From the NCBI GenBank assembly GCA_964460615.1, contig CAYWPX010000001.1:120073-184072 (forward strand): 64,000 nucleotides of DNA, read 5' to 3'. Within the stretch, counting starts at the first letter, position 1; each line of letters starts with the position of its first letter. The notes under the pieces are model-generated. The model ran no database searches and was not told the DNA's origin. It was given only the letters and a program-made list of their open reading frames with translations. The DNA comes from an uncultured Planctomycetia bacterium (GTDB lineage: Bacteria; Omnitrophota; Gorgyraeia; CAYWPX01). Shown here one piece after another: positions 3,052-53,615 of this stretch. Made by a program: the position numbers and the translations under genes.

Positions 3052-3094
3052 AATCTGTTAACGCGTCCCTCGTGTAAACGTTAAAAAATTCCTC

Positions 3095-3123
3095 GCCTGC
3101 CTATAGCAGGCAAGAAATTTTTA
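3095..3123 (+). terminator. possible intrinsic terminator between the carbamoyltransferase paralogs
   Basis: Hairpin GCCTGC-ctata-GCAGGC followed by aagaaattttt. Confidence 0.4.
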
Positions 3124-3202
3124 GCACACACTTCGGGATAATTCGCACCTATAACTTAGTTTCCCATCGGGTCACCTAAGTTATGTGCTCATTAAGGAAA
3201 TA

Positions 3203-5740: not shown

Positions 5741-6436
5741 ATGGAAAAAAATATTCTATCAGTTGTTATGCCGGTGTATAATGAGAAAGATACTATTCTC
5801 AAAATCGTAGACAGGGTCCTTAAGCTGGATTGCCTTAAAGAGCTTATTGTTGTTGATGACAAATCTACTGACGGGACCAGGGAGATCTTGCAGAATGCTA
5901 GATTTGATAACCGTGTTAAATTGTTACTTCATGATAAAAACACTGGTAAGGGCGGGGCATTAAGGACCGGCTTTAAAGCGGTTACAGGCTTGGTTGTAGC
6001 TATTCAGGATGCTGATCTTGAATATGATCCTAAAGAGCTGATGCTTTTGACGAGACCCATTGAAGAGGGAGTGGCAGATGTGGTTTATGGTTCAAGGTTA
6101 TCAGGGGGAATGCCTCAGAGGGTGCATCTGTTCTGGCATAAGATAGGTAACATGCTCATAACTTTCATCATGGACTTTTTGTTTAATACCACACTGACTG
6201 ATGTAGAGACATGTTATAAGGTTTTTAAGTCAGAGTATCTTAAAAATATGACAATTAAGGAGAATAGATTCGGTATCGACCCTGAGATTACAGCCAAGCT
6301 TCTTAAACAGAACCCAAGGATATATGAAGTTCCGATCTCATATTACGGAAGAAGTTTCAGTGAAGGCAAAAAGATAACCTGGCTTAACGGCTTTGAGGTT
6401 ATCTGGGCGATAATAAAGTATAGATTTATAAACTAG
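5741..6436 (+). CDS. GT2 polyprenol-phosphate sugar synthase (dolichol-phosphate mannosyltransferase-like)
   Basis: LSVVMPVYNEKDTILKIVDRV...LIVVDDKSTDGTREIL; 231 aa size and motif arrangement match DPM1/ArnC-like enzymes. Confidence 0.8.
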   Translation: MEKNILSVVMPVYNEKDTILKIVDRVLKLDCLKELIVVDDKSTDGTREILQNARFDNRVKLLLHDKNTGKGGALRTGFKAVTGLVVAIQDADLEYDPKELMLLTRPIEEGVADVVYGSRLSGGMPQRVHLFWHKIGNMLITFIMDFLFNTTLTDVETCYKVFKSEYLKNMTIKENRFGIDPEITAKLLKQNPRIYEVPISYYGRSFSEGKKITWLNGFEVIWAIIKYRFIN

Positions 6437-8835: not shown

Positions 8836-9958
8836 GAAAATCTTTGTAATCCACGCTTCAGCCGGAGGCGGCCACAGGAAAGCTGCAACAAGTCTAATCA
8901 AGGCTTTTGAGGAGCTTGGCTTTAGGCATGATATCACTCTTATTGATTCGCTTGATTATACTAATAATTCTTTTAAGAAGTCCTATCAAAAAACATATCT
9001 ATTAGCCATACAGAAACTTCAGAATCTCTGGGGGTTTTTCTACTATCTCTTGGATAATGCGGTCTTTTACAAGTTTTTTGTATCATTTGCCAGGCGCATC
9101 GTTAATCAGCTGAATACCAAGCCTTTAAGGGACCTTATAATAAAAGAAAAGCCGGATCTGATCCTGTGTACGCATTTTCTTGCGCCAGAAGTTATTGGTA
9201 ATATGAAAAATAAGGGCCTGATAGACACGAAGCTTGTGACCGTGATCACGGATTTTAAGCCTCACACATTCTGGGTTCATAGCGGGATAGATTATTACAT
9301 AGTGGCCGATCAGTATACTAAAGACGAGCTGGTTAAAAGGGGCGTTTCCGGTGATAAGATCCTCGTATATGGCATACCTATCGAAAAGGCTTTTTCTATC
9401 GACTATGACAAAAATGAGCTTAGGCAAAAATTCGGGATGAAGGATATCTTTACTGTCCTTATCGGAAGCGGCGGTTGGGGCGTGGGGCCCATAGAAAAAC
9501 TGGTAGATATTTTAGGCCAAATGGACGAGGAATTACAGGTGATGGTTGTTTGCGGTGAGAATGATATTCTTTGTAATAACATATCAAGATACGCTTCAGA
9601 TTTTAAAAACTTCGTAAAGGTTTTCGGTTATGTCAATAACATGTATGAGCTTATGTCTATTGCTGATGTCATAGTGACTAAATCAGGCGGACTTACTACA
9701 TCTGAATCATTGGCCAAGGACCTTCCGATGATTATTATAGCCCCTATCCCTGGCCAGGAGACAAGGAATTGCGATTTTATATTAAATTCCAAAGCAGGTT
9801 TTAAGATCAATAATCCTGAAGACGTAAGAGATAGGATCAAAGAACTAATAAATTCCAAGGAGCTTTTGAATAAATTAAAAGATAATATTTCGAAGATAAG
9901 AAAACCCAATTCCAGCCTTGATATTGCAAGGTTCTGTTTAAAGTTAATAGGTAACTAA
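8828..9958 (+). CDS. MGDG-synthase-like glycosyltransferase (GT28-like, diacylglycerol glycosyltransferase family)
   Basis: MNKKIFVIHASAGGGHRKAATSL N-terminus typical of the MGDG synthase family; start set at second ATG 8828 with AAGGAG SD (track start 8798). Confidence 0.7.
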   Translation: MNKKIFVIHASAGGGHRKAATSLIKAFEELGFRHDITLIDSLDYTNNSFKKSYQKTYLLAIQKLQNLWGFFYYLLDNAVFYKFFVSFARRIVNQLNTKPLRDLIIKEKPDLILCTHFLAPEVIGNMKNKGLIDTKLVTVITDFKPHTFWVHSGIDYYIVADQYTKDELVKRGVSGDKILVYGIPIEKAFSIDYDKNELRQKFGMKDIFTVLIGSGGWGVGPIEKLVDILGQMDEELQVMVVCGENDILCNNISRYASDFKNFVKVFGYVNNMYELMSIADVIVTKSGGLTTSESLAKDLPMIIIAPIPGQETRNCDFILNSKAGFKINNPEDVRDRIKELINSKELLNKLKDNISKIRKPNSSLDIARFCLKLIGN

Positions 9959-15812: not shown

Positions 15813-16829
15813 ATGCCCGAGTTAAGAAAAGATCCTGTGGTAGGCAGATGGGTTATTATAGCAACCGAGCGCGCCAAAAGGCCTCAGGATTTTTCAAAAG
15901 AAGATTCAAATATTGACGATTCAGCATGTCCTTTCTGCGAGGGGAAAGAGGCATTGACCCCGCATGAGATTTTTTCATTAAGGAGCCAAGGAAATACGCC
16001 CGGATGGGATGTAAGGGTAGTTCCCAGCATCAATCCGCTTTTAGTTATTGAAGGTAAACTCAATAGGCGGCCAAAAGGCATGTATGATCTTATGGATGCT
16101 ATTGGCGCACATGAAATAGTGGTAGAAACCCCTAAACATATACACAACATGGCTGATCTTGAAGAGTCACAGATAGTAAAGGTATTTGATGTTTACCTTA
16201 ATAGGTTATCGGACTTGGAGAAAGACCATAGGTTTAAGTATGTTCTGATTTTCAAGAATTACGGGGTTGCCGCAGGGGCCGGGCCGATAAAACATTCCAG
16301 AAGCCAGCTTATTGCTACCCCGGTTAACCCAAAAAGAGTAAAAGAAGAGCTGATGGGTTCAAGGCGCTATTTTGAATATAAAGAGAGATGTGTATTCTGC
16401 GATATTATCAGGCAGGAGATAGCGGATGAGAGCAGGGTTGTTTTGGAGTCGGAAGAGTTCGTTGTGATCGCGCCGTTCGCTTCGAGATTTCCCTTTGAGC
16501 TTAATATCCTTCCTAAGAAACATTCGGCTGATTTTACAAAGATCAGCCACTCAGAGAAACTGGATCTTGCCAGGGTGCTTAAAAATACTCTGATGAAACT
16601 CAAGATCGCTCTCAATGACCCTCCTTATAATTTTGTACTTCATTCTGCTCCTTTCAGGGGATCAAGAAAACAGGGCTATTGGAAGACGGTTGACAGCGAT
16701 TATCATTGGCATATCGAAATAATGCCCAGACTTACAAGCGTAGCTGGGTTTGAATGGGGATCGGGGGTTTATATTAACCCGACTCCTCCTGAAGAAGCTG
16801 CTAAATACCTTAAGGAATTGGGGATTTAA
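15813..16829 (+). CDS. GalT-like HIT-superfamily nucleotidyltransferase/phosphorylase paralog 1 (active-site variant HSRSQ)
   Basis: CPFCEG zinc motif, second CVFCDII motif, YHWHIEI; canonical H-P-H-x-Q replaced by H-S-R-S-Q. Confidence 0.8.
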   Translation: MPELRKDPVVGRWVIIATERAKRPQDFSKEDSNIDDSACPFCEGKEALTPHEIFSLRSQGNTPGWDVRVVPSINPLLVIEGKLNRRPKGMYDLMDAIGAHEIVVETPKHIHNMADLEESQIVKVFDVYLNRLSDLEKDHRFKYVLIFKNYGVAAGAGPIKHSRSQLIATPVNPKRVKEELMGSRRYFEYKERCVFCDIIRQEIADESRVVLESEEFVVIAPFASRFPFELNILPKKHSADFTKISHSEKLDLARVLKNTLMKLKIALNDPPYNFVLHSAPFRGSRKQGYWKTVDSDYHWHIEIMPRLTSVAGFEWGSGVYINPTPPEEAAKYLKELGI

Positions 16830-16951
16830 ATGTCTTAGGGGATGAATCCCGTAAGACTATTATTGCAGGATCATAGGTTTTTTTGGATTAAATCAGCATA
16901 AGGGATATAAACAGTTTTATAAAAGCTATAATTTTATAGGAGTCTTACGGG

Positions 16952-17968
16952 ATGAATCAGTTAAGACGTGACGTTGTTACCGGCAGATGGATAATAATAA
17001 ATGTTGATGAAGATCAGACTCATTTTGATTTCTTGACTGAGCAGAGAGAGAAAAAAGGCGGGACATGCCCCTTTTGTCCCGGCAATGAAAGAATGACCTC
17101 GCATGAAATAACTGCATACGGAAGAAAAGCATATGTCCCAAATTCAGCAGATTGGACCTTGAGGGTGGTCCCAAATAAATTCCCGGCGCTAAAAATTGAA
17201 GGCGAGATAGGTAAGATCGGCGTAGGGCTTTATGATATGTCTAACGGCATAGGTGCGCATGAAGTTATAGTTGAATCTCCGGATCATAATAAGGAATTAT
17301 CAGATCTTGACATAGAAAGAGTTGAGGATGTTATCTGGTCTTATAGTGACAGATCTTTGGATCTTAGGAAAGACCCCAGATTTAAATATATACTGATCTT
17401 CAAAAATTACGGAGAACCGGCGGGGGCATCCTTAGAGCATCCGCATTCACAGGTTATCGCGCTTCCAATAGTCCCCAGCCGCGTAACTGACGAGCTGGAG
17501 GGTGCAAAAAAATATTTCGATTATAAAGAGAGATGTATCTTTTGCGATATTATTCATCAGGATATGCAGGATAAAGAACTCATTGTTACCGACAATGAGC
17601 ATTTTTTGTCATTCTGCCCTTTTGTTCCGAGATTCCCATATGAGACATGGATAATACCAAAACAGCATTCACCTGATTTTGGCTACATAACAAAAACCGA
17701 AGTCGAGAGTTTAGCCAAGATACTTAAAGAGACGCTTCAAAGAATAAAAAATCTGTTGCAAGATCCTTCATATAACTTTATAATCCATACTGAGCCTCTT
17801 AATGGCGAGGGTTCTATGTATAAGGAAAGTTACCATTGGCACATTGAAATAATCCCAAGGCTGACCAAAACAGCGGGGTTTGAATGGGGAAGCGGGTTTT
17901 ATATAAACCCGATCTCTCCTGAATATGCGGCTAAGACGTTGAGAGATGTTAAGCTGCTGAAAGAATAA
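16952..17968 (+). CDS. GalT-like HIT-superfamily nucleotidyltransferase (galactose-1-phosphate uridylyltransferase family) paralog 2
   Basis: CPFCPG, canonical EHPHSQ active-site motif, CIFCDII, YHWHIEI. Confidence 0.8.
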   Translation: MNQLRRDVVTGRWIIINVDEDQTHFDFLTEQREKKGGTCPFCPGNERMTSHEITAYGRKAYVPNSADWTLRVVPNKFPALKIEGEIGKIGVGLYDMSNGIGAHEVIVESPDHNKELSDLDIERVEDVIWSYSDRSLDLRKDPRFKYILIFKNYGEPAGASLEHPHSQVIALPIVPSRVTDELEGAKKYFDYKERCIFCDIIHQDMQDKELIVTDNEHFLSFCPFVPRFPYETWIIPKQHSPDFGYITKTEVESLAKILKETLQRIKNLLQDPSYNFIIHTEPLNGEGSMYKESYHWHIEIIPRLTKTAGFEWGSGFYINPISPEYAAKTLRDVKLLKE

Positions 17969-18048: not shown

Positions 18049-19083
<1,035 letters not shown>

Positions 19084-19090
19084 TCGGTTT

Positions 19091-19124
19091 GTACTTATTC
19101 TAAGCAAAAGCTTAGAATAAGTAC
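19091..19124 (+). other. perfect 15-bp stem hairpin just downstream of gap
   Basis: GTACTTATTCTAAGC-aaaa-GCTTAGAATAAGTAC; no T-tract follows. Confidence 0.5.
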
Positions 19125-19313
19125 TGATTACCCCGTGAGCATTGGAAAAATATTACCACCTGGAAATCCGAAGGATTACCGGGGTAGATTTTTCCAATGG
19201 GTAGCGAAACGGGGCGTTTAAGCTTCTGATTTATAAATATAGATTACTGCGAATCGACTACCCCTATATAACTAGTAGGGGTAATCAAGAGAAGGCTTAA
19301 CTATGAAAGACAA

Positions 19314-19360
19314 ATAGGGGAACTCATTTAGATATATGAATTCCCCTATTTTTTACTTTT
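19314..19360 (+). terminator. terminator-like hairpin immediately upstream of the histidine kinase gene
   Basis: ATAGGGGAA-17 nt-TTCCCCTAT followed by TTTTTTACTTTT. Confidence 0.45.
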
Positions 19361-20347
19361 ATGAAAAAAGAAGAAAAAAAGATCATGAATGAAGAGAGCC
19401 AGCTTTTTTCAGAGCTAGGCGAAAGCCCATATCAGAGGTTTAAAGAGGCATTTGCGCTGATGTCTATTATACCGCTTCTTGGGTTTTTCTACATTCTGGT
19501 AGGGAAGCTTTTTTCGCTCTCCATACTTGAAGGTGAGATAGGCTTTATACTGTTCATTATAATTATTTTAACCGTATTTGGGTTTCTTTTTTCGTATTCA
19601 GTGATCAAGAAACTCCTGAGGCATTTAGTTAAATATTCCATTAAGCTTAAAAAATATGACAGCGCTAAATCTGAATTTGTGGCAAAATTTTCTCACGAAG
19701 TATTATCTCCGCTTGCTATAATAAAGATAAATATGTCCAATATAATGGACGGCATTATGGGGCCGGTCAATGACCCGACAAATAAATCTTTGGGAGAATG
19801 CCAGAAGTGCGTTGTTAGGATTGAGAAACTTGTTACCAATATGTTGGATCTCTCCAAAATAGAATCCGGCCGACTTGAGCTATCAAGATCTCTCGTTGAT
19901 CTTACCAAGCTTGTGAATGAAGAGGTCACCACTGCGAAGGCGCTTGCCTTAAAAAAGAATATCGCGCTTAATTCCGATCTTGCCGGTAAGGCAATTTTTA
20001 TCTGGGGGGACATAGATAGGCTTAGAGAGGTATTATTGAACCTTATAGATAACGCTATTAAATATACTCCTGAAAATGGAACAATTAAGATCAAGCTGTT
20101 TGAGGAAGACTCTAAGGTGATCCTTGAAGTCAGCGATACAGGTCCCGGTATTGAGGCAGACAAGCTAGATAAGGTATTTGATAAATTTTCTAATGTATCC
20201 TCAAAAGAAGGCCATGGGCTTGGTTTATCCATTACAAGAGACATAATAGATCTTCATCGCGGCAGGATATGGGTGGAGAGTGTAGTAGGGAAAGGGACCA
20301 ATTTTTTTGTATTGTTCCCCAAGGATCTTAGAGTTGTGCGCAGATAG
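19361..20347 (+). CDS. sensor histidine kinase (two TM helices, HisKA, HATPase_c)
   Basis: H-box FSHEVLSPL, N-box LLNLIDNAIKYT, G-box DTGPGI...GLGLSI; no response regulator nearby; alternative start at 19385. Confidence 0.8.
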   Translation: MKKEEKKIMNEESQLFSELGESPYQRFKEAFALMSIIPLLGFFYILVGKLFSLSILEGEIGFILFIIIILTVFGFLFSYSVIKKLLRHLVKYSIKLKKYDSAKSEFVAKFSHEVLSPLAIIKINMSNIMDGIMGPVNDPTNKSLGECQKCVVRIEKLVTNMLDLSKIESGRLELSRSLVDLTKLVNEEVTTAKALALKKNIALNSDLAGKAIFIWGDIDRLREVLLNLIDNAIKYTPENGTIKIKLFEEDSKVILEVSDTGPGIEADKLDKVFDKFSNVSSKEGHGLGLSITRDIIDLHRGRIWVESVVGKGTNFFVLFPKDLRVVRR

Positions 20348-20446: not shown

Positions 20447-21634
20447 ATGAACAAGAAAACCATAAAAGATATCGATATTAAAGGTAAAAGGGTCCTTATC
20501 AGGGTTGATTTCAACGTTCCGTTTGAAAAAGGGACTACCAAGATCAGCGATGACACAAGGATCGTAGGGGCTTTGCCTACCATCAAATATGCCATAGAAA
20601 AAGGTGCGAAGGTTGTCCTCATGAGCCATTTAGGCAGGCCTGACGGCATGGTAAAGGAGGAATTGAGATTGGCGCCTGTAGCTAAAAGGCTTTCTGAATT
20701 ACTTGAAAGGCCTGTAATAGCCGCCAAAGATTGCATCGGTGAAGAAGTCAAAAAACAGGTTGCATCCATGAAAAATGGAGATGTGATCCTTCTTGAAAAT
20801 TTAAGATTCCATAAGGAAGAAGAGGAGAATGACCCGAATTTTGCAAAAGAATTATCATTGCTCGGTGATGTTTATGTGAATGACGCTTTTGGCACTGCTC
20901 ATAGGGCGCATGCTTCTACAGAAGGTGTTACAAAATATTTACCCGGTGTTGCCGGTTTTTTAATAGAAAAAGAGATTGAGTACCTTGGGAATGCCCTTAA
21001 TAATCCCAAAAGGCCGTTTGTAGCGATACTCGGCGGAGCAAAGGTATCGGATAAGATAGGCGTTATAAAAAATCTTTGGGGAAAAGTCGACAAGATAATT
21101 GTCGGCGGTGCAATGGCATATACCTTTATGAAGGCTACCGGCCAAAATGTCGGAGCCTCAAAAGTTGAAGCAGATAAACTTGATATTGCAAAAAACATCC
21201 TTGAGGAAGCCAAAAAAAGAAACGTCGAGCTGCTATTGCCGGTAGATCATATTATGGCTGATAAGTTTGACAAAAACGCCAATACGGAAATTTCAAGCGG
21301 TGTTAATATCAAAGACGGCTGGCTTGGTTTAGATATAGGCCCAAAGACCGTAAAGCTTTTTTCTGATGCGTTAGTCGGGGCAAAAACAGTTGTGTGGAAC
21401 GGGCCTATGGGCGTATTTGAGATGGATAAGTTTGATAAAGGGTCCCTTGGAGTTGCCCAGGCGGTAGTAAATTCTAAAGCAGTATCAATAATAGGCGGCG
21501 GCGATACGGCTTCATGTATAGCCAAATTTGGTTTAACAGATAAGATGTCGCATATATCCACTGGCGGAGGCGCAAGCCTTGAGTATATGGAAGGAAGAGT
21601 ACTTCCTGGTATAGCGGCATTACAGGATAAATAA
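20447..21634 (+). CDS. pgk: phosphoglycerate kinase
   Basis: RVDFNVP, MSHLGRP, GGGASLE motifs; 395 aa. Confidence 0.95.
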
Positions 21635-38596: not shown

Positions 38597-38602
38597 AAAC
38601 TA

Positions 38603-38676
38603 GCGATTAGGCGATTAAGTGATTAGGTAATTAGGTAAAACCCAATCACATAATCGCATAATTACCAAATCGCTAT
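38603..38676 (+). repeat. octad-periodic imperfect inverted repeat between argJ and argB
   Basis: GCGATTAG GCGATTAA GTGATTAG GTAATTAG ...loop... CAATCACA TAATCGCA TAATTACC AAATCGC (arms reverse-complementary at about 26 of 33 positions). Confidence 0.75.
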
Positions 38677-38693
38677 ATTATTAAAGGAAAAAA

Positions 38694-52967: not shown

Positions 52968-52971
52968 TAAG

Positions 52972-53178
52972 ATGGATTCGTGCAAAAATTATAAAAAGAA
53001 TTTAGAAAAGTGCGCCTGTACCTATTCTTCCTGTTCCAGAAAAGGATATTGCTGTGAATGCGTAAGCTATCACAGAAGTAACAACGAAATACCGGCATGC
53101 TTTTTTAATAGTTCATTTGAATCGACCTATGATAGATCCGTTAACAATTTTATAAAAATGGTTAAGGGCAATAAATAA
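52972..53178 (+). CDS. small cysteine-rich protein (8 Cys in 68 aa)
   Basis: CKNY...CACTYSSCSRKGYCCEC...ACFF; family name not verified. Confidence 0.5.
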   Translation: MDSCKNYKKNLEKCACTYSSCSRKGYCCECVSYHRSNNEIPACFFNSSFESTYDRSVNNFIKMVKGNK

Positions 53179-53255
53179 GGTAGTTATGGTTAGTTTTGCT
53201 TTTTGAGCAAAACTACCTTAAACATGACACCTAAAATAAAGGAGGTGATTCATAA

Positions 53256-53501
53256 ATGGCAACAAAAGTAGCTAAGGTAGGAGTAAAAAGGGAGAAGGGT
53301 TTCCTTTACTTCATTGATAAGAATGGAGACGTTTCCAAGGCTAAGATGGCAAGAGGCAAGCAGAAAGGCGGCAAACCTCAGAAAGTAGCCAAGGTTGGCG
53401 TAAAGAAAGAAAAAGGATATCTCTATTTCCTCGATAAGCAGGGTGACGTTTCCCAGGCAAAGATGGTCAGAGGCGGTAAGAAAAAATCCAAAAAAAGATA
53501 A
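53256..53501 (+). CDS. small basic protein with two internal ~35-aa repeats
   Basis: KVAKVGVK[RK]EKG[FY]LYF[IL]DK[NQ]GDVS[KQ]AKM[AV]RG occurs twice; nucleotide copies differ mainly at third codon positions; AAGGAGG SD. Confidence 0.55.
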   Translation: MATKVAKVGVKREKGFLYFIDKNGDVSKAKMARGKQKGGKPQKVAKVGVKKEKGYLYFLDKQGDVSQAKMVRGGKKKSKKR

Positions 53502-53529
53502 TATTTTATCTTTTGTAGTATAAAAAAAG

Positions 53530-53575
53530 AACAGGTTTCCAAGAGATTAATCTCATGGAAACCTGTTTTTTCTTT
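53530..53575 (+). terminator. intrinsic terminator
   Basis: AACAGGTTTCC-loop-GGAAACCTGTT followed by TTTTTTCTTT. Confidence 0.7.
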
Positions 53576-53580
53576 AAAGC

Positions 53581-53609
53581 TTGCAGTAAAACCTCCTCTA
53601 AGGTATAAT
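53581..53609 (+). promoter_or_regulatory. sigma70-type promoter, predicted leaderless transcript
   Basis: TTGCAG-17 nt-TATAAT; the -10 ends 6 nt before ATG 53616. Confidence 0.5.
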
Positions 53610-53615
53610 TTATTT

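Follow-up and report, generated by a model that had tools for sequence, protein, structure and literature searches.

The genes gap and pgk, for glyceraldehyde-3-phosphate dehydrogenase and phosphoglycerate kinase, normally stand side by side, and the locus described here raises the question of what has come between them. It lies in a 64,000-nucleotide stretch of contig CAYWPX010000001.1, the whole of which we call the window. An earlier reading of the letters of this stretch (the sequence-only reading) had pointed to an orphan sensor histidine kinase gene between gap and pgk, preceded by a spacer so densely structured that it might be a cis-regulatory RNA or a small RNA (sRNA) gene. We found that the spacer is indeed structured far beyond chance and that conservation is confined to its last, terminator-like hairpin. 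These observations suggested a reading to which we assign a probability of roughly 0.5: the spacer is the 3' end of the gap transcription unit in expanded form, with a conserved bidirectional terminator insulating a kinase gene of low expression, a restart of pgk transcription downstream, and palindromic filler in the remaining block. The features of the locus are as follows, with positions counted from the first letter of the window.

18076-19083, plus strand: gap, encoding a type I glyceraldehyde-3-phosphate dehydrogenase (Pfam Gp_dh_N and Gp_dh_C)
19084-19360: gap-kinase spacer, 277 nt
19361-20347, plus strand: gene for a sensor histidine kinase of 328 aa
20390-20417, plus strand: promoter of pgk-tpi-secG, TTGACA-N16-TGgTATAAT, a 12/12 match to the sigma-70-type consensus, with TG upstream
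20447-21634, plus strand: pgk, encoding phosphoglycerate kinase (Pfam PGK, E value 1.9e-167), followed by tpi and secG

The gap-kinase spacer is structured beyond chance

The elements named in the sequence-only reading are all present in their places, except that the spacer is 277 nt long, not 278 nt. It folds at -103.7 kcal/mol, compared with -58.7 +/- 4.6 kcal/mol for dinucleotide shuffles (z = -9.9), and is the strongest structural outlier of the 29 intergenic regions of the window (the runner-up has z -6.6). Perfect inverted repeats of at least 10 bp number four in the spacer, against 0.09 expected, and those of at least 12 bp number two, against 0 expected; 3 of the 19 strongest local inverted repeats of the 64 kb fall within these 277 nt. 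The hexamers TACCCC and GATTAC occur four times each in the spacer and 13 and 23 times, respectively, in the whole 64 kb. The perfect 15-bp hairpin at 19091-19124, the TACCCCT..AGGGGTA hairpin, and the terminator-like hairpin with a T tract, all of which the sequence-only reading had named, were recovered by folding, and they take their places among the following elements.

19084-19286: lineage-only block of ~200 nt, bracketed by the 5-bp direct repeat TAATC (19081-85 and 19282-86)
19091-19105 and 19110-19124: hairpin 1, a perfect 15-bp palindrome, GTACTTATTCTAAGC-AAAA-GCTTAGAATAAGTAC, beginning 7 nt past the gap stop codon and without a T tract
19125-19134 and 19278-19287: long-range perfect 10-bp inverted repeat, left arm TGATTACCCC, right arm GGGGTAATCA
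19129-35 and 19180-86: 7-bp repeat TACCCCG/CGGGGTA, which crosses the 12-bp repeat
19131-19214: composite long hairpin, with an outer CCCCGU/ACGGGG stem, a 12-bp stem, CATTGGAAAAAT/ATTTTTCCAATG, and an interrupted inner stem capped by a GAA loop
19140-51 and 19188-99: perfect 12-bp repeat, CATTGGAAAAAT/ATTTTTCCAATG
19256-19287: hairpin 3, GACTACCCCTA...TAGGGGTAATC (TACCCCT..AGGGGTA)
19312-19351, plus strand, with the feature extending to 19358: terminator-like hairpin (hairpin 4), AAATAGGGGAAC..GAATTCCCCTATTT, followed by the T tract TTTTTTACTTTT

The three hairpins of the upstream block are built on GAYTACCCC/GGGGTARTC arms. The C-arms (19126, 19256, and 19338) and the G-arms (19180, 19277, and 19316) resemble diverged copies of one unit, and the arms of hairpin 3 are 76 to 83% similar to those of the terminator hairpin. 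Hairpin 1 folds at -21.6 kcal/mol (z -8.4) on the plus strand and at -22.2 kcal/mol (z -9.9) on the minus strand, the composite hairpin at -38.6 kcal/mol (z -5.0), and hairpin 3 at -14.7 kcal/mol on the plus strand and -18.4 kcal/mol on the minus strand. The 3' arm of hairpin 3 doubles as the right arm of the long-range 10-bp repeat, a pair that could close the 163-nt segment 19125-19287 as one domain or could mark the two ends of a small element as its terminal inverted repeats. The open reading frames (ORFs) of the spacer reach only 20 to 28 codons and are featureless, and no tandem duplication of a 116-nt unit, which repeat D2 had suggested, was found in it by TRF.

The two strands of the spacer fold equally well (-103.7 versus -106.3 kcal/mol), and the stems are nearly all Watson-Crick, with very few G-U pairs. 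Equal folding gives no pointer to which strand, if any, is a functional RNA; together, the Watson-Crick stems and the strand symmetry argue for recent palindromes at the DNA level and not for an old structure at the RNA level.

The sequence-only reading had also described a pseudoknot-like crossing of the 7-bp and 12-bp repeats, both of which sit within the composite hairpin. The complementarity exists, but a nested hairpin explains it better. In the minimum free energy (MFE) structure, which is wholly nested, ACCCCG pairs with the third G-run (ACGGGG, 19209-14) and closes the composite hairpin, and CC-CC is the partner of the internal GGGG. In nested folding, the crossing 7-bp helix could be forced only at a penalty of ~19 kcal/mol (a constraint fold under a model without pseudoknot energies). 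A real H-type pseudoknot would also seem to need longer loops than the 4 nt and 1 nt available to bridge helices of 12 bp and 7 bp. Repeats of 7 bp are at chance level in the spacer (11 observed, the long ones counted in, versus 3.3 +/- 1.9 expected); therefore, the TACCCCG/CGGGGTA arm is not significant alone and carries little weight.

Orthologous loci share the terminator-like hairpin and lack the upstream block

We assembled a comparative set of ~165 Gap-containing loci from genomes and metagenomes, in 118 of which pgk was detectable. Gap scans of genomes and JGI metagenomes returned no close relative (at most 75% identity), and the closer ones came from protein searches and the contigs of the proteins found. 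By Gap, the closest named relatives are metagenome-assembled genomes of Candidatus Omnitrophota; the Gap protein of the window is 92% identical to that of locus L082 and 79% identical to that of Candidatus Velamenicoccus archaeovorus. The source of the window is an uncultured member of the Omnitrophota related to Velamenicoccus.

The claim that gap and pgk are normally adjacent, and split here by a kinase gene, holds in this set: the two genes lie within 250 bp of each other in 99 of the 118 loci. Among the ~165 loci, a kinase gene separates them only in the window (with L001, an identical Logan copy of it), L082, and a further locus, L085. The order galT-galT-gap-kinase-pgk-tpi-secG-SBP is common to the window and L082, and L085 reads gap (3' end)-kinase-pgk. 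In the next relative (L166/L167; Gap, 83%), the same genes flank a gap-pgk gap of 5 bp. The insertion that placed the kinase gene between the two took place in an ancestor of the small clade formed by the window, L082, and L085. In Velamenicoccus and L170, gap is followed instead by a GH77 gene and further genes, so the gap-pgk junction has been broken several times in the phylum.

Between the window and L082, Gap is 92% and Pgk 86% identical; the kinases of L082 and L085 share 70.6% identity, and each is 63 to 64% identical to that of the window. The gap-kinase spacers measure 277 nt in the window, 84 nt in L082, and 57 nt in L085, and the two shorter ones align only with ~19283-19360 of the window, a region consisting of a purine-rich stretch, TTAAC, and the terminator hairpin with a T-rich tail. 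In the alignment, the first ~200 nt of the window's spacer, with three of the four hairpins and the supposed pseudoknot, have no counterpart in the spacers of L082 or L085. This is the comparison of gap-pgk spacers that the sequence-only reading had proposed, and on the first of the two points that it had named, conservation among orthologous loci, the outcome goes against a regulatory RNA.

The terminator-like hairpin is the only part of the spacer retained in a relative. Its counterpart in L082, AAAATAGGGACT..AGTCCCTATTTT, is 12-bp perfect, with inner pairs that differ and yet keep the pairing, in keeping with the description of the last hairpin as terminator-like; in L085, the hairpin has shrunk to a 7-bp A/T stem.

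The upstream block matches no Rfam family and has no second copy in the sequence searched

At gathering thresholds, no Rfam model matched anywhere in the window. On the spacer at E values of up to 10, Rfam gave nothing credible, and the best sub-threshold hits (E values of 0.18 to 0.8) cover the terminator hairpin only. ARAGORN found no tRNA or tmRNA, and a small signal recognition particle RNA or 6S-like long hairpin, which the CCUGG...UCCGAAGGA apex had brought to mind, received no support from Rfam. The lack of an Rfam model at threshold and the absence of the block from relatives both speak against the spacer as a cis-regulatory RNA or sRNA gene, and the upstream block is probably not a conserved ligand- or signal-sensing RNA.

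Further copies were sought at three scales. In the 64-kb window, blastn-short found none beyond chance matches of 11 to 24 nt; in 1.5 Mb of related loci, blastn and nhmmer found no spacer homolog beyond chance; and neither the plasmid and phage collections nor viral contigs, the latter covered by three pattern scans, gave a copy beyond chance.

A terminator-like hairpin in front of the kinase gene and a consensus promoter behind it

Hairpin 4 (19312-19351; -19.4 kcal/mol, z -5.6) has a G+C-containing stem followed by a T tract and stands downstream of a stop codon. The T tract ends 3 to 5 nt before the kinase ATG, and the kinase gene starts ~10 nt past the stem. A terminator consensus scan scores the hairpin on the minus strand; it is terminator-like on that strand as well because A and T tracts flank it. 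A 4-codon mini-ORF (19303-19317, ATG AAA GAC AAA TAG), with GAAGG 7 nt upstream, has a stop codon that falls within the 5' arm of the terminator hairpin; L082 and L085 lack this mini-ORF.

Strong structure at this position is widespread in the phylum. In Omnitrophota loci where gap does not directly precede pgk, the 150 nt past gap show strong folding (z -4 to -8.5), usually through a perfect stem of 15 to 21 bp between A and T tracts, and where pgk directly follows gap, the post-gap z is ~0. A strong hairpin at the 3' end of gap is therefore the rule in the phylum wherever pgk is not next. Because Velamenicoccia are predicted to gain ATP by Embden-Meyerhof glycolysis (PMC10066038), high expression of gap is plausible, and it would make sense for a strong terminator to follow the gene. 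The Shine-Dalgarno sequence of gap is itself strong (AAGGAGGAG).

The kinase gene, unlike most genes of the window, has no Shine-Dalgarno sequence, and it likewise lacks one in L082 and L085. A promoter scan of the spacer found no promoter-like site at threshold and hence no recognizable kinase promoter. The protein has HisKA (E value 3.7e-11) and HATPase_c (E value 2.1e-31) domains and two hydrophobic segments, centered on residues 37-48 and 58-77 and separated by a loop of ~8 residues. In an alignment of the kinase family, H112 and the boxes NLxDNAxKYTP (N), DTGPGI (G1), FDKF (F), and GxGLGL (G2) are invariant. With two transmembrane segments joined by a short loop and all catalytic boxes invariant, the kinase is intact and of the intramembrane-sensing type.

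No response regulator was found when a profile made from six Omnitrophota receiver domains was run against all frames of the 64 kb, which agrees with the earlier description of a two-transmembrane kinase without a partner in the window; a weak tblastn receiver match at 9659-9850 sits within a monogalactosyldiacylglycerol-synthase-type glycosyltransferase and was discarded. Full-length homologs (~328 aa) form a family in the Omnitrophota. Three of them, 43 to 49% identical (L083, L084, and L184), come after two genes for single-domain CheY-like receivers, and two of these three precede MshE/PilB-PilC-pilin genes (type IV pilus or type II secretion). Another homolog (L182/L183) follows a hexokinase gene and a hypothetical gene. 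The receivers beside homologous kinases lack a DNA-binding domain, and one kinase homolog has a weak LiaI-LiaF-TM_PspC match. "Orphan" is thus the right word for this locus, in a kinase family that normally has partners. Sugar metabolism genes (transaldolase, hexokinase, and gap/pgk) recur near members of the family (L083, L084, L184/L185, and L182/L183).

The consensus promoter previously assigned to pgk stands: its TTGACA-N16-TGnTATAAT pattern is common to the window, L082, and L085. The kinase-pgk spacer measures 99 nt in the window, 63 nt in L082, and 219 nt in L085 (L085:1101-1319), where it opens with two G+C-rich hairpins (CCTGCC..GGCAGG and GAAACACC..GGTGTTTC) directly past the kinase stop codon.

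A working model of the locus

In the reading that we favor, most gap transcripts would end at the terminator, the kinase would be made at a low level by read-through, and transcription of pgk-tpi-secG would start anew from a promoter of its own. The ~200 nt of additional sequence would be recent noncoding palindromic DNA, either a small nonautonomous insertion or a local duplication of terminator arms, the latter being possible because the arms share the GAYTACCCC/GGGGTARTC motif. If the block functions at all, it might serve as an added barrier protecting gap mRNA from 3' exonucleases or limiting read-through.

Several points weigh against this expanded-terminator reading. Termination, read-through, and a stabilizing role are all steps that we infer. 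The databases reached hold only three loci of the gap-kinase-pgk type, and because L082 and L085 are sisters, loss of the block in their ancestor is as parsimonious as its gain in the lineage of the window. The searches of the window, related loci, plasmids, phages, and viral contigs gave no second copy of the block, the 10-bp inverted repeat is not accompanied by a clean target-site duplication, and hairpins 1 and 3 are dissimilar. A purely passive role leaves the strong enrichment of GATTAC and TACCCC and the several alternative pairings unexplained, and structure at the level of 10 sigma goes beyond what is usual even in a terminator region.

Alternative explanations of the block

The alternative that survives best, although we consider it unlikely, is that the block is a miniature inverted-repeat transposable element (MITE) or an IS200/IS605-type palindrome-associated element without a host function, comprising either the 163 nt of 19125-19287 or the ~196 nt that the TAATC copies enclose. 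Such an element would be bounded by the perfect 10-bp inverted repeat, of a kind of which 0.09 are expected, or by the direct repeat TAATC; it would have hairpins near both ends; and it would account for equally folding strands, few G-U pairs, and the lack of the block in both orthologous loci. The two sets of repeats do not fit together, however: the TAATC copies bracket ~196 nt and do not flank the 10-bp inverted repeats. The end hairpins are dissimilar, which is unexpected if one transposase recognizes them, no transposase was seen nearby, and neither the 64-kb window, the 1.5 Mb of related loci, nor the plasmid, phage, and viral collections contain a second copy. The first TAATC copy overlaps the gap stop codon, and the repeat could be a target-site duplication or chance.

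It is doubtful that the 163-nt domain at 19125-19287 is a young, lineage-specific structured RNA, acting either as an sRNA derived from the 3' untranslated region (UTR) of gap or as a leader that tunes gap-to-kinase read-through via pairings of C4 with G4 runs. If this were true, expression of an orphan, membrane-stress-type kinase would be tied to transcription of a glycolytic gene in an ultra-small Omnitrophota cell.

An sRNA from the spacer as such, processed from the gap 3' UTR with the gap terminator or transcribed from a weak promoter in hairpin 1 (TTGTAC-N18-TAGAAT, with a start near 19125), strikes us as improbable. Its appeal lies in a very stable modular structure that ends in a terminator with a U tail, in a possible likeness of hairpin 3, the A/U-rich linker, and the terminator to the 3' half of many bacterial sRNAs, and in TAGAAT at 19113-18, a 5/6 match to the -10 hexamer. 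The spacer nonetheless has no Rfam match, no promoter at the scan threshold, and no strand signal, as its strands fold alike, and all of it but the terminator is missing from relatives, with no measurable covariation.

We regard a cis-acting leader of the attenuator or riboswitch type as very unlikely. Here, alternative pairing of C4 and G4 runs would control read-through into the kinase gene, and the mini-ORF might join in. Several combinations of pairing are open to the three C-arms and four G-arms, the long-range stem 19125-34:19278-87 lies only 2.3 kcal/mol above the MFE when forced, and the ATG of the mini-ORF has GAAGG at a suitable distance and a stop codon inside the terminator stem. 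The pairings that would disrupt the terminator are nevertheless costly (~25 kcal/mol for 19256-67:19314-25 and ~24 kcal/mol for 19269-87:19337-55), and the combination that would free it is topologically knotted; a thermodynamic switch of long-range stem and antiterminator was rejected as the main explanation on these grounds. The mini-ORF and the entire upstream block are missing from L082 and L085, and no known riboswitch model matches. Riboswitch control of a kinase gene would also be unusual, which counts further against a leader.

Least probable of all is that GAYTACCCC in both orientations and the 34-bp perfect palindrome are DNA-level binding sites through which a transcription factor or nucleoid protein controls gap termination or kinase transcription, an idea favored by the density of GATTAC and TACCCC (four of each in 277 nt versus 23 and 13 in 64 kb), by palindromes perfect on both strands, and, as a lead only, by the resemblance of TACCCCT to the NarL-type heptamer TACYYMT, and opposed by a motif never paired elsewhere in the window, the lack of a promoter there to regulate, regulators without a DNA-binding domain beside homologous kinases, and the nonconservation of the block in relatives.

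Neighboring genes and other palindromic spacers

The gene order of the window around the locus is two GalT/HIT-like paralogs, gap, spacer, kinase, pgk, tpi, secG, and an SBP_bac_5 gene. The GalT/HIT-like tandem paralogs (DUF4921/DUF4931, 15813-17968) stand directly 5' of gap and are kept in L082, L166, Velamenicoccus (L168), and L170.

Hairpin-dense DNA is found elsewhere in these genomes. Between pgk and tpi, where the spacer in the window is 18 bp, L082 carries an unrelated insert of ~219 nt (L082:7233-7451) with three long, near-perfect hairpins (z -6.7); homology between this insert and the block of the window was considered and dropped, as no similarity was found. A palindrome, GGGACWGTCCCC, occurs in several Omnitrophota-like loci (L009:7090-7141, L011:7045-7073, L089:430-441 and 6040-6113, L080:4125-4162, and L029:3320-3331), three times just downstream of gap, and is absent from the window; these palindromes may be a repeat family like the repetitive extragenic palindromic (REP) elements. 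The L082 insert and the recurring palindrome suggest that sporadic palindromic inserts are common in these genomes.

The other structured spacers of the window differ in sequence from the one after gap. An intergenic long hairpin at 38597-38693 (z -6.9) is made of 8-nt periodic GNGATTAR repeats and their complement, with a GATTA core as in the motifs of the gap spacer. The spacer at 3052-3184 (z -5.6) combines a three-level hairpin with a further hairpin reaching right up to the GTG start codon of the gene that follows, and a 648-nt spacer at 52968-53615 (z -5.2) contains a 28-nt near-perfect palindrome at 53521-53576. Past ~53 kb, long spacers and short genes are numerous in the window (DUF5674, RlmL-like, YgjP-like, isochorismatase, a pilin-like protein, and others).

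Comparison with known systems

On these results, an attractive riboregulator candidate is set aside: a z of about -10 and perfect stems stand here without conservation, and what is conserved amounts to no more than an ordinary terminator. The locus offers a natural example of a foreign gene tolerated in a core glycolytic operon, with a terminator before it, no ribosome-binding site, and a new consensus promoter behind it that restores pgk-tpi. Should the extra hairpins prove to be transcribed and functional, they would show a structured RNA that arose very recently, in a phylum about which little is known. The ~200-nt block fits no described family, yet it is a singleton and therefore cannot be called a new RNA class.

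The kinase is comparable to the intramembrane-sensing kinases (LiaS/BceS-like) in having two transmembrane segments, a loop of ~8 residues, and HisKA and HATPase_c directly after them, with no PAS or HAMP domain. It differs from them in that its Omnitrophota homologs adjoin CheY-like receivers and show no ABC transporter or LiaF link, and in that it has no adjacent partner in this clade.

Stem-loops between cistrons can stabilize the mRNA segment upstream of them, as the REP elements of the Escherichia coli malEFG operon do, and an intercistronic stem-loop in the gap-pgk operon of Zymomonas was reportedly described in 1993 as acting in the same way. The hairpins of the window likewise come directly past gap, where a block to 3' exonucleases and an uncoupling of expression would be possible. 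In contrast to those stem-loops, they belong to no repeated family in the sequence searched, are known here from sequence alone, and are accompanied by a kinase gene and a new promoter between gap and pgk.

With REP elements, bacterial interspersed mosaic elements, and MITEs, the block shares short, near-perfect palindromes, terminal inverted repeats, a position between a stop codon and the signals of the next gene, lineage specificity, and strand symmetry. It is unlike them in being a single copy in the sequence searched and in lacking both a clear target-site duplication and an associated transposase.

The bidirectional intrinsic terminators of highly expressed genes are matched by hairpin 4, with its G+C core, its flanking A and T tracts, its position after gap, and its retention in L082, and by the long perfect post-gap hairpins elsewhere in the Omnitrophota. 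The departures from that pattern are the three further strong hairpins without T tracts that precede hairpin 4 and the next gene beginning ~10 nt past the stem. The parts of the locus belong to known kinds: a HisKA kinase, an intrinsic terminator, a sigma-70 promoter, and palindromic intergenic DNA.

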